From assembly GCF_054482525.1 (NCBI RefSeq), contig NZ_CM137006.1: 64,000 nt of DNA; one strand, written 5' to 3'. Both the position numbers and the translations under genes were made by a program. The notes under the pieces are model-generated. The model was given only the letters and a program-made list of their open reading frames with translations. It ran no database searches and had not been told where the DNA came from. This document shows, one piece after another, positions 2,518-33,026 of this stretch. Position 1 is the stretch's first letter. Each line of letters begins with the position of its first letter.

Positions 2518-3339
2518 TTATTTTTGCGACAGTTGATCCAGCCTGTCGCGAAAACCGGTAACAGAAATGGCCCGGTTATCGGCGCGCCAGCGATCTTTCG
2601 CGGCAGGAGCCGAACTTTGCACCCCAATTAATTGCCAGCCGTCATCGGTATGCAACATCAGAGGCGAACCGCTGTCACCCGGCAAGGTATCGCACTGATG
2701 TGACATCACCGACGTTTGCGCCCAGCCAGTCACTTCACAGTTTTGATGACTGTACAACGTATCGAGATGATCTTCAGGGTATCCCGCCTGAGTCACTTTA
2801 CGACCTGCCTCTTTTAATGCGGCGGTAAGCGCGGCTTTATCTCCCTCAAATAACGGCAACGGTGTAATGCCAGAAGGGGGATTACGTAGCACAATCAAAC
2901 CGAAGTCCCAGGGCGCAGCTGCGGGAGGTACAATCCAGCCATCCCCATCTGCTTTTAACCGCTTTCCCAGTGTCGGATCAACGCGGCCTTCTATGTCGTG
3001 GATCTCATAGCGCCAAAGACCTTTATTTGACACGAAACGCAGCGCTACCGCTTTATCGGCTTTACCCTTTGGCGGCGTCAATAAACAGTGTCCTGCCGTT
3101 AATGCCAGATTGGGTGCAATCAGCGTCGCCGTACATAAATTGCCGCTGGCCGTTTCCAGTTGGCCAACCGCATCCCACGGTGATTGGGTCGTGTCATTCA
3201 CTGGCACACGATCATCATGACCAAAAAACAGGGTGCTGACCTCATCGTTTGCCGATTTGGCAACGTCTGGTTTATCTGCAAACACAAAAGCAGACGTCAA
3301 ACTAATTGCACCCAACACTACAGCAATGGTTGTACGCAT
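2518..3339 (-). CDS. ydgD: secreted trypsin-like serine protease YdgD
   Basis: 273 aa with N-terminal signal peptide; catalytic motifs LTAGHC and GDSGSP visible in translation. Confidence 0.85.
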
Positions 3340-30507: not shown

Positions 30508-31398
30508 ATGATCAAGAAGACAACGGAAATTGATGCCATCTTGTTAAATCTCAATAAGGCTATCGATGCCCACTACCAGTGGCTGGTAAGTATGTTTCAC
30601 AGCGTAGTCGCGAGAGATGCCAGTAAGCCAGAAATAACGGATAACCATTCTTATGGACTGTGCCAGTTTGGTCGGTGGCTTGATCATCTGGGGCCACTCG
30701 ATAACGATGAATTACCTTACGTTCGGCTAATGGATTCTGCCCATCAACATATGCATAACTGTGGTCGGGAATTAATGCTGGCTATTGTTGAAAATCACTG
30801 GCAGGACGCGCATTTCGGCGCCTTTCAGGAAGGGTTGCTTTCTTTTACTGCGGCATTAACCGATTACAAAATTTATTTGCTGACGATCCGTAGCAATATG
30901 GATGTTTTGACGGGATTGCCGGGTCGTCGGGTTCTTGATGAATCCTTTGATCATCAGTTACGCAACGCTGAGCCTCTGAATCTTTATTTAATGTTGTTGG
31001 ATATTGACCGATTTAAATTGGTTAATGATACCTACGGGCATTTAATCGGCGATGTAGTATTACGCACCCTGGCAACTTACTTAGCCAGTTGGACGCGTGA
31101 TTACGAAACGGTTTATCGCTACGGGGGCGAAGAATTTATCATTATTGTCAAAGCGGCTAATGATGAAGAAGCATGTCGTGCAGGTGTCAGAATTTGCCAG
31201 TTAGTCGATAACCATGCCATCACACATTCTGAAGGGCATATCAACATTACCGTGACAGCAGGTGTCAGTCGCGCATTTCCTGAAGAGCCTCTGGATGTGG
31301 TCATTGGAAGAGCGGACCGGGCAATGTATGAGGGTAAGCAAACCGGAAGAAATCGCTGTATGTTTATTGACGAACAAAACGTGATTAACCGAGTTTAA
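30508..31398 (+). CDS. dgcZ: zinc-regulated diguanylate cyclase DgcZ (YdeH)
   Basis: 296 aa from MIKKTT; N-terminal chemoreceptor zinc-binding-type domain and C-terminal GGDEF domain with RYGGEEF. Confidence 0.92.
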   Translation: MIKKTTEIDAILLNLNKAIDAHYQWLVSMFHSVVARDASKPEITDNHSYGLCQFGRWLDHLGPLDNDELPYVRLMDSAHQHMHNCGRELMLAIVENHWQDAHFGAFQEGLLSFTAALTDYKIYLLTIRSNMDVLTGLPGRRVLDESFDHQLRNAEPLNLYLMLLDIDRFKLVNDTYGHLIGDVVLRTLATYLASWTRDYETVYRYGGEEFIIIVKAANDEEACRAGVRICQLVDNHAITHSEGHINITVTAGVSRAFPEEPLDVVIGRADRAMYEGKQTGRNRCMFIDEQNVINRV

Positions 31399-31449
31399 GC
31401 TCCGTTTAACATTCATTGAGAAAACTGATGCTACTGTGTCAACGATCCG

Positions 31450-31541
31450 TTATCAGTGCAGGAAAATGCCTGTTAGCGTAAAAGCAAAACACAAATCTAT
31501 CCATGCAAGCATTCACCGCCGGTTTACTGGCGGTTTTTTTT
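31450..31541 (+). ncRNA. mgrR: candidate small RNA MgrR (PhoP-regulated), 3' end defined by hairpin ccgcc/ggcgg plus T8
   Basis: intrinsic terminator 31516-31541 in the dgcZ-mgtS gap where MgrR maps in K-12; 5' end not determined; could instead be the dgcZ terminator. Confidence 0.35.
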
Positions 31542-31616
31542 CGCCGTCATAAAAATCAGGCCCCTTGTACAAAGTTGTAACAAGGGGCCGGTTAGGTGAG
31601 GGATTATCTCCGTTCA

Positions 31617-31712
31617 TTAGTCATCCCATTTGTGGCTGAAATACGCGGCCAGAAAACCAGAAAATAAAATTATTCCCAGTACGGCCATAAAAATATTCAT
31701 ATTACCCAGCAT
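31617..31712 (-). CDS. mgtS: 31-aa small membrane protein MgtS (YneM), MLGNMNIFMAVLGIILFSGFLAAYFSHKWDD
   Basis: ATG with GGAGG Shine-Dalgarno; TAA stop followed by hairpin 31561-31589; below ORF-track cutoff. Confidence 0.8.
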   Translation of the reverse strand: MLGNMNIFMAVLGIILFSGFLAAYFSHKWDD

Positions 31713-31838
31713 TATTTGCCTCCGTTTATGGTGTGGTGTGTTTCCTCGCTTACCTTAATTTTCATCTCAATGAGAAAGATATTAGCAGAGGTAACCTAAA
31801 CGAAGGCTGAATTAAATTTTTATTGTGTTCGACTTAAA

Positions 31839-33026
31839 TCAACAAAGCGCGGGCTGCCCCCACGGTCTTGCACGAATTCCTTTTAACATCAGCACCCACG
31901 CAGCAATGATCACCAACGCTAAGATGATAAACAGCGAGAAAGGTGGCAGACTGGTAAGCACTATGCCACTCACTAATGGGTTAATCGCCGCACCAAGCCA
32001 GCCTAAAGACTGAGCGGAAAAATAGCTGGCTTTCATTCCTGGCGGCGCAATATGGTCAATCAACATATACTCGCCCGGCGCATAAATGATTTCACCGACA
32101 GTAAATACCGCAGCTGACATACCCCACAATAGCAGGCTGTTGCCGGAAAAAATAAAACCGACCAGCCCAATGACGAAACAGAGGGTGCCTGCTGTCATCA
32201 GCGCGCGGATGTTAGCCGGGTTAAGTCGGCGGCCCACGGAATATTGCAACGTAACTACCATGGCAGCATTAACCGGAAGAACAACCGCAACCACCTTTTC
32301 GGCAAAATCACCATCAGCAATCACCATCACATATTGTGAAATGCACGAGGCAAATGCGCCGCTAACAAAGGAAGCCAGAAAACCAGAGCAGGTAAACCAC
32401 AACAGTGCTTTATCTTGTAATAAAACTTTCGGCGACCAGGCACTGCCTGTTTCCGTGGCGATGATTTTCTCGCTGCGCTTTACCCAAATTTGAATGAAAA
32501 GCATGGGAAACGCGGAACAGATAGCTGCCAGCCAAAAGGGCAGATTGATGCTCTGCATCACCAACAGCGTGCCGAGCGGCGGACCGATGGTCCAGCCAAT
32601 GTTGAGCATGGTGTAGTTGATTGAGAAGATTTTCGTTTTGCTGGTGGAGGAAAGATTGTCGGCAAACCAGGCTTTCAACACGGTAGCAAAAACGGAATAG
32701 GCGCAGTTAATAAGGGCAAAAAAGAGCACCACCAGCGTCACGTTATTCACTAAAGGAATGGCAATAAAACCGCTGGCGAAGGCGGTAATTGCCAGTAACA
32801 TATAGCGTTTCTTGTCGAACTTATCCGCCAGGATACCAAAACCGAGGCTAAAAACGACGCCAATAGTGAGCGCAATTGTCATCGCATAACCGATTAGATC
32901 GACACTCAGGTTGTACTGGCGACTCAAGTAAATGGTCATAAACGGCAGCGTAGCGCCGCGTCCGATGGTTAATAACAACGACGAGGCAAGAAGGGCGCTG
33001 GTAGAGCGTCGTAGGGATAAGTTCAT
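31839..33026 (-). CDS. ydeE: MFS transporter YdeE (dipeptide/drug efflux)
   Basis: 395-aa MFS-type ORF matches YdeE. Confidence 0.88.
   Translation of the reverse strand: MNLSLRRSTSALLASSLLLTIGRGATLPFMTIYLSRQYNLSVDLIGYAMTIALTIGVVFSLGFGILADKFDKKRYMLLAITAFASGFIAIPLVNNVTLVVLFFALINCAYSVFATVLKAWFADNLSSTSKTKIFSINYTMLNIGWTIGPPLGTLLVMQSINLPFWLAAICSAFPMLFIQIWVKRSEKIIATETGSAWSPKVLLQDKALLWFTCSGFLASFVSGAFASCISQYVMVIADGDFAEKVVAVVLPVNAAMVVTLQYSVGRRLNPANIRALMTAGTLCFVIGLVGFIFSGNSLLLWGMSAAVFTVGEIIYAPGEYMLIDHIAPPGMKASYFSAQSLGWLGAAINPLVSGIVLTSLPPFSLFIILALVIIAAWVLMLKGIRARPWGQPALC

Follow-up and report, generated by a model that had tools for sequence, protein, structure and literature searches.

The 440 nt between dgcZ and ydeE in Escherichia coli raise the question of which genes so short a gap holds, and of the signals by which they are controlled. 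We analysed a stretch of 64,000 nt (the window), in which positions 31399-31838 make up the whole of this gap. The initial annotation had named it as such from the letters alone, and the limits bear this out: the plus-strand ORF of dgcZ stops at 31398 and the minus-strand ORF of ydeE stops at 31839. The product of dgcZ scores 518 bits against the NCBIfam equivalog for the diguanylate cyclase PRK09894, and that of ydeE 799 bits against the one for YdeE, an MFS exporter. The E. coli strains SCU-102 and 19KM1776 have the gap with 100% identity, and 5416 of 5426 complete E. coli genomes carry it. Against the MG1655 gap, taken as its reverse complement, it aligns without indels and is identical at 434 of 440 positions.

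The six mismatches to MG1655 are spread over the gap. One is found at 31447, where nt 4 of the small RNA MgrR is a C instead of a U, and three (31572, 31574 and 31575) are found in a hairpin loop, where they give the changes V15T and V16L in MgtT. The fifth, at 31694, gives V7I in MgtS, and the last, at 31818, lies immediately upstream of the PhoP box of mgtS. Three genes are annotated in the MG1655 gap, and we transferred them by subtracting the position in the MG1655 locus (NC_000913.3, our locus L002) from 34359 to get the window coordinate. This places the ncRNA gene mgrR (b4698) at 31444-31541 on the plus strand, and mgtS (b4599) at 31712-31617 and mgtT (b4775) at 31617-31513, both on the minus strand. 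The arrangement is that of K-12, with mgrR between dgcZ and mgtS-mgtT, in the same relative orientation and 98 nt long.

The gap had been described in the initial annotation as a PhoP-regulon island of small genes, with mgtS and a candidate MgrR as its members. These two were correctly recognised, while mgtT and the candidate frame CDS58 (see below) were missed and the PhoP boxes were left unplaced. The 31-codon ORF MLGNMNIFMAVLGIILFSGFLAAYFSHKWDD that was read as MgtS/YneM is found at 31712-31617 on the minus strand, with the Shine-Dalgarno sequence GGAGG at 31723-31719, 6 nt ahead of the ATG. Its product of 31 aa is matched over residues 1-31 of 31 by the NCBIfam equivalog NF033842 (79.6 bits, cutoff 35, E = 1.2e-22) and by Pfam PF22865 (86.3 bits, cutoff 27). 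It is identical to K-12 MgtS in 30 of 31 residues, and the gene agrees with K-12 mgtS/yneM (b4599) in length, Shine-Dalgarno sequence, promoter and terminator; only V7I sets the protein apart, and the same Ile is found in other Escherichia sequences and in many Citrobacter. The frame also bears a clear coding signature among its relatives, with entropies of 0.21, 0.09 and 0.87 at the three codon positions and a synonymous to nonsynonymous ratio of 3985:1470.

The terminator that had been proposed as the 3' end of MgrR, at 31516-31541 on the plus strand, is likewise there, as a stem CCGCCGG/CTGGCGG (31516-31533) followed by eight T (31534-31541), and b4698 ends with it. It was said to be upstream of mgtS on the opposite strand. 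The strand is correct, but "upstream" applies to the window coordinates only: mgrR and mgtS are convergent, and the MgrR terminator lies downstream of the 3' end of mgtS. Both MG1655 genes align here without gaps, the Rfam match to MgrR is on the plus strand, MgrR maps neither elsewhere nor to the other strand, and the small ORF does match MgtS. Short ORFs and hairpins are common, and a sigma-70 promoter scan of the gap gave no sites, and one might on these grounds suspect that both the small ORF and the terminator have arisen by chance in intergenic sequence. We give that reading practically no probability, and regard it as refuted by a profile E-value of 1e-22 and a covariance-model E-value of 1e-64, by the occurrence of the region in those 5416 E. 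coli genomes and in many genera, and by substitutions in mgtS that are dominated by third positions. Judged by these comparisons the identifications of MgrR and MgtS are right, and both are known genes, already annotated in K-12.

The small RNA itself is almost unchanged from K-12. The window sequence aligns to MG1655 b4698 (98 nt) without gaps and is identical at 97 of 98 positions, with nt 5-98 all the same. The single difference, the C for U at nt 4, is at an unpaired position, and C is also the commoner state there in other genera. MgrR has been described as an Hfq-dependent sRNA of class II, 98 nt long, that pairs through U55-A68, has an A-rich ARN motif in its middle and represses eptB and ygdQ (PMC6239178), and pitA is a further target (PMC8313858). 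With the positions of PMC6239178, the seed UAUCCAUGCAAGCA (nt 55-68) is at 31498-31511 on the plus strand, and the seed, the ARN motif and the terminator are all identical to those of K-12. The predicted fold has a 5' stem-loop, an open A-rich (ARN) middle and a terminator hairpin (z = -2.9), and agrees with the published summary of structure probing (PMC6239178). For the terminator, our terminator scan counted 8 pairs, 6 of them G-C, around the loop TTTA, ahead of the U8 run at 31534-31541. Between the dgcZ stop at 31398 and this terminator no other terminator is found, and transcripts of dgcZ probably continue across the mgrR promoter as far as this one.

In Rfam, the sequence is matched on the plus strand by RF01407 (STnc560, an Hfq-binding RNA) at 279.4 bits (E = 7.7e-64), where the gathering score is 55. 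It is the single Rfam family found in the whole 64-kb window, and a permissive scan of the gap gave beyond it just a sub-threshold Hrs13 match (16 bits) and a palindromic hairpin on the minus strand (17 bits). The model is, in contrast to the 98-nt MgrR, 214 nt long, more than twice the length, and model positions 1-214 cover 31410-31623. It thus also takes in 34 nt of promoter (31410-31443) and the sequence up to the end of mgtS, and its second consensus hairpin (31557-31592) is the terminator of mgtS read on the non-functional strand, as the T-rich tail is present on the minus strand only. We take STnc560 to be MgrR from its overlap with the coordinates of b4698; no paper that uses both names was found in the literature searched. 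As to annotation, the earlier observation that mgrR is absent from a track of ORFs holds for a public record as well. The automatic RefSeq annotation of a strain identical to the window (NZ_CP151009.1) lists mgtS and mgtT and lacks the mgrR ncRNA, whereas the curated K-12 record NC_000913.3 has it, and a track of ORFs alone does miss this sRNA.

The PhoP boxes could not be placed in the same simple way. The initial annotation had suggested a search for the direct repeat (T/G)GTTTA-N5-(T/G)GTTTA upstream of each gene, and allowing up to two mismatches we found 19 matches in the window against 17.8 expected by chance. Within the gap there is one match at 31392-31408, and another at 31521-31537 inside the MgrR terminator. 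We therefore rejected this strict consensus as a box finder on its own: it is not enriched, one of its matches is in a terminator, and for mgrR it selects a register that is not conserved. The boxes were for this reason placed by conservation. One genome per species was scanned for the MgrR seed region, which gave 115 stretches and in all 119 segments centred on the seed, with the window and two loci of E. coli among them. A segment was kept if its flank was long enough and six or more T followed in a row soon after the seed (104 of 119, nearly all from Enterobacteriaceae), and those kept contained 103 unique mgrR promoters; the corresponding set for mgtS has 49 unique sequences.

Upstream of mgrR, the columns that are conserved are CGTTTA at 31403-31408, TT in the spacer, CATTGA at 31414-31419 and TGnTA at 31429-31433. 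They form a box CGTTTA-ACATT-CATTGA at 31403-31419 on the plus strand, -41 to -25 from the annotated 5' end at 31444, and an extended -10 element at 31429-31437 (TG at 31429-31430 and TACTGT at 31432-31437) that ends 7 nt before that 5' end. The pattern GTT[TG]A-N6-[AG]TT[ATG]A is present at this place in 90 of the 103 unique enterobacterial promoters, and another 12, from Citrobacter, have a CATTGG variant. In 83 of the 90, the box and the -10 are separated by 12 nt.

The mgtS promoter is built in the same manner. Its 49 unique sequences have the box, the 12-nt spacer and the -10 as at mgrR; in the window the box is AATTCA-GCCTT-CGTTTA, at 31813-31797 on the minus strand, and the -10 is TAATAT at 31784-31779, with TA...T conserved and the box 12 nt upstream. 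Of 36 anchored mgtS promoters, 32 have the distal half-site [AG][AG]TT[CA]A, 34 have the proximal [TC]GTTTA and 32 keep the 12 nt between box and -10. With the usual distance of 7 nt past the -10, the transcription start of mgtS would be near 31771, which corresponds to 1,622,587 in MG1655. Just upstream of the box, around -50, the sequence AATAA (31820-31824, minus strand) is conserved as well (consensus AAATAATCACA in other genera), and may resemble an UP element or serve as one more binding site. A terminator-like hairpin is also seen at 31848-31864 on the minus strand, over the last codons of ydeE and with the stop codon within the T-rich tail; it would keep transcripts that read through from ydeE out of the mgtS promoter.

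PhoP-activated promoters have in general the PhoP box at the -35 region (PMC7667037), and the sigma-70 scan came out empty because they lack a -35 hexamer. Both promoters in the gap resemble this canonical type in having a direct repeat with 11-nt periodicity over -35 and no -35 hexamer, and this architecture is kept among the orthologous promoters of either gene. They differ from it in that only one half-site of each box is good (C/TGTTTA), the other being degenerate (CATTGA or AATTCA). Both have four mismatches to the strict consensus and are missed by any search that allows three or fewer, and the sole match in the gap with at most two mismatches upstream of a start site is the one at 31392-31408.

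That match deserves consideration, since it has a counterpart in the literature. PMC8313858 relays an mgrR site at -52 to -36, identified by "consensus motif identification" and attributed to the 2009 discovery paper, and -52 to -36 is exactly 31392-31408. The functional site would then be AGTTTA-AGCTC-CGTTTA and not the promoter-proximal pair. Of all sites in the gap it comes closest to the strict consensus, with two mismatches, and the same paper reports a condition-dependent peak of protein occupancy over the PhoP motif upstream of mgrR. The central CGTTTA (31403-31408) is common to both registers, and the published data may not tell them apart. The half-site AGTTTA at 31392-31397 is, on the other hand, made up of the last codon of dgcZ (GTT) and its stop TAA, and is present in the 11-nt register in just three of the 90 promoters, all from Escherichia, against a proximal pair and a 12-nt spacing that are nearly universal. 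The strict pattern from which the distal register derives shows no enrichment in the window, and the mgtS promoter has the proximal architecture. We find the distal register unlikely for these reasons; conservation favours the promoter-proximal pair at 31403-31419, and we infer that this is where PhoP acts, as it would on the pair at 31813-31797 at mgtS. The mgrR box is then one half-site nearer to the promoter than the relayed 2009 register, which is relevant for anyone who mutates or models this promoter.

Between the mgtS promoter and its start codon there is a short upstream frame, MKIKVSEETHHTINGGK, of 17 codons (31765-31712, minus strand), whose stop TAA overlaps the ATG of mgtS by 1 nt. 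Its peptide is identical to the candidate CDS58 in supplement file 5 of the PIRT-Seq study, for which no more than a faint western signal was seen. The AUG is only about 6 nt from the predicted start of transcription, and among the species sampled the frame is intact only in E. coli. A block of the same 5' UTR, TTAAGGTAAGCGAGG (31744-31758, minus strand), is conserved across genera even where the frame is broken. We predicted no stable structure for the leader (-5.8 kcal/mol, z = +0.8), and a stable fold is on account of this z-score ruled out as the cause of the conserved block; a standby site for ribosomes, or a site for a regulator or sRNA, is possible.

At the other end of mgtS, an intrinsic terminator is found at 31589-31549 on the minus strand, with the hairpin at 31589-31559 and, at 31558-31549, the tail UGAUUUUUAU. 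Of 50 unique mgtS-mgrR intervals 42 exceed 100 nt, and every one of these 42 has a hairpin rich in G+C, followed by a T-rich tail, some 30 nt past the stop of mgtS; the stems show compensated changes in several genera. We had considered that the T-tract might be much weaker in Escherichia, and dropped the idea: it has 5-6 T of 8 against 5-7 of 8 elsewhere, the sole difference is a UGA of 3 nt ahead of the run, and we base no claim of leakiness on it.

This terminator lies inside an annotated gene. The frame of mgtT has 34 codons (31617-31513, minus strand), starts with an ATG that overlaps the stop of mgtS (TAATG, 31619-31615), passes through the mgtS terminator and stops at 31513, in the complement of the MgrR terminator, so that its last 29 nt (31513-31541) are antisense to the 3' end of MgrR. 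It has the position and length of K-12 mgtT (b4775), with 32 of 34 residues identical and with an identical CDS58 peptide in the same locus, and it departs from K-12 MgtT in V15T and V16L, both from the three substitutions in the terminator loop. Ribosome profiling with stalled initiation complexes revealed the protein, and tagging confirmed it at levels below those of MgtS (bioRxiv 10.1101/511675). mgtS and mgtT have been described as a PhoQP-dependent operon, in which MgtT is not membrane-associated and has no phenotype on deletion or overexpression (PMC11429745).

Is MgtT then a protein that has been selected for a function of its own, or a translated frame over two RNA terminators? There is a Pfam family for it, PF23498, which the ORF matches at 91.5 bits (cutoff 27), and it is annotated in RefSeq as well as in MG1655. 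Translation in K-12 has been seen by ribosome profiling, SPA tagging and PIRT-Seq, mgtT is induced by low Mg2+ (PMC11429745), and the ATG that overlaps the mgtS stop is found in 42 of the 50 unique intervals. The pattern of conservation tells against selection on the protein. Outside Escherichia the frame varies between 7 and 83 codons, and neither length nor peptide is conserved. The residues that are conserved in MgtT fall on the two hairpins: the arms of the mgtS terminator stem encode RPLV and KGP, and the stretch GEKKPPVNRR is read from the reverse complement of the MgrR terminator. In codons 2-9, the eight ahead of the hairpin, synonymous to nonsynonymous changes are 660:1938, which resembles the two wrong frames (282:2005 and 535:1954) and not mgtS (3985:1470), the segment being short and the counts being pairwise ones from phylogenetically related sequences and not independent events. 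Within E. coli the three substitutions cluster in the hairpin loop and alter two residues of MgtT, and the absence of a deletion or overexpression phenotype points the same way. A protein-coding frame conserved across genera was not found here, although the ORF is still a member of PF23498 by its sequence. We consider it improbable that MgtT has been selected as a protein; its conservation points to a constraint at the level of the RNA and not of the peptide. This calls for some caution with other families of small proteins, where conserved residues can reflect RNA terminators and not selection on the peptide.

Since mgtT is translated, a read-through RNA must exist. It could be imagined that the mgtS terminator of Escherichia is deliberately leaky, and that the mgtS-mgtT RNA, which is perfectly complementary to the last 29 nt of MgrR with its terminator and Hfq tail, and MgrR interfere with or titrate each other in cis. 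MgtT and CDS58 would then be young, lineage-restricted frames laid over conserved RNA and DNA signals, and not conserved effectors. We offer this as a speculation, and a rather doubtful one.

The gap is almost certainly the PhoQ/PhoP-controlled low-Mg2+ module of E. coli, mgrR / (CDS58)-mgtS-mgtT. Our own analysis contributes to this picture the identity, coordinates and strands of the genes, the terminators, the coding signature of mgtS and the conserved architecture of the promoters; for the dependence on PhoQP, the binding of Hfq, the targets and the function of MgtS with MgtA we rely on the literature, which also describes MgtS as inserted in the membrane. The convergent mgrR and mgtS are known to be PhoPQ-dependent, MgtS raises MgtA and so intracellular Mg2+ (bioRxiv 10.1101/2021.06.30.450655), and mgrR-lacZ and yneM-lacZ fusions track the level of PhoP (PMC3536696). 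There are two convergent promoters, each with a PhoP direct repeat that replaces the -35 and lies 12 nt upstream of the -10, and at low Mg2+ phosphorylated PhoP would activate both. From the plus strand the 98-nt MgrR would be made, whose single-stranded seed (nt 55-68) would pair with the eptB, ygdQ and pitA mRNAs, and whose terminator with its U8 tail would bind Hfq. From the minus strand would come a short mgtS mRNA, translated into MgtS, which would raise the level of the Mg2+ importer MgtA. This mRNA would mostly end at the intrinsic terminator some 30 nt past the stop, and the transcripts that read through it in Escherichia would also carry the 34-codon mgtT frame. We saw no sequence evidence in contradiction to this model. 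As mgrR and mgtS belong to the textbook PhoP regulon of E. coli, the module has small weight as a discovery; the interest that remains is in the register of the mgrR box and in the nature of mgtT.

A few loci among the relatives are different from the rest. In eight of them (L027, L042, L063, L084, L085, L095, L101 and L115 in our numbering; seven from Kluyvera, and L063 from an Enterobacteriaceae bacterium) there is a more divergent MgtS-like ORF, e.g. MPDNMQVFVIAMGLILFSGFLTAYLSGKWND, that ends 55-79 nt from the MgrR seed. Because no separate hairpin is found there, this ORF appears to share the MgrR terminator, which would then work in both directions. Enterobacteriaceae bacterium RIT691 (L018) has two copies of the MgrR seed, at 1436-1453 and 3030-3047, with 1.6 kb between them; the usual promoter with a PhoP box is found at one, which has no adjacent mgtS, and the other adjoins mgtS and lacks the conserved promoter. 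Lastly, enterobacterial mgrR-mgtS sequence was found in two records labelled as non-enterobacterial, a Caldithrix MAG (L008), identical to K-12 over the segment examined, and Chryseobacterium sp. 18061 (L116), and both are probably cases of contamination or mislabelling of public assemblies.
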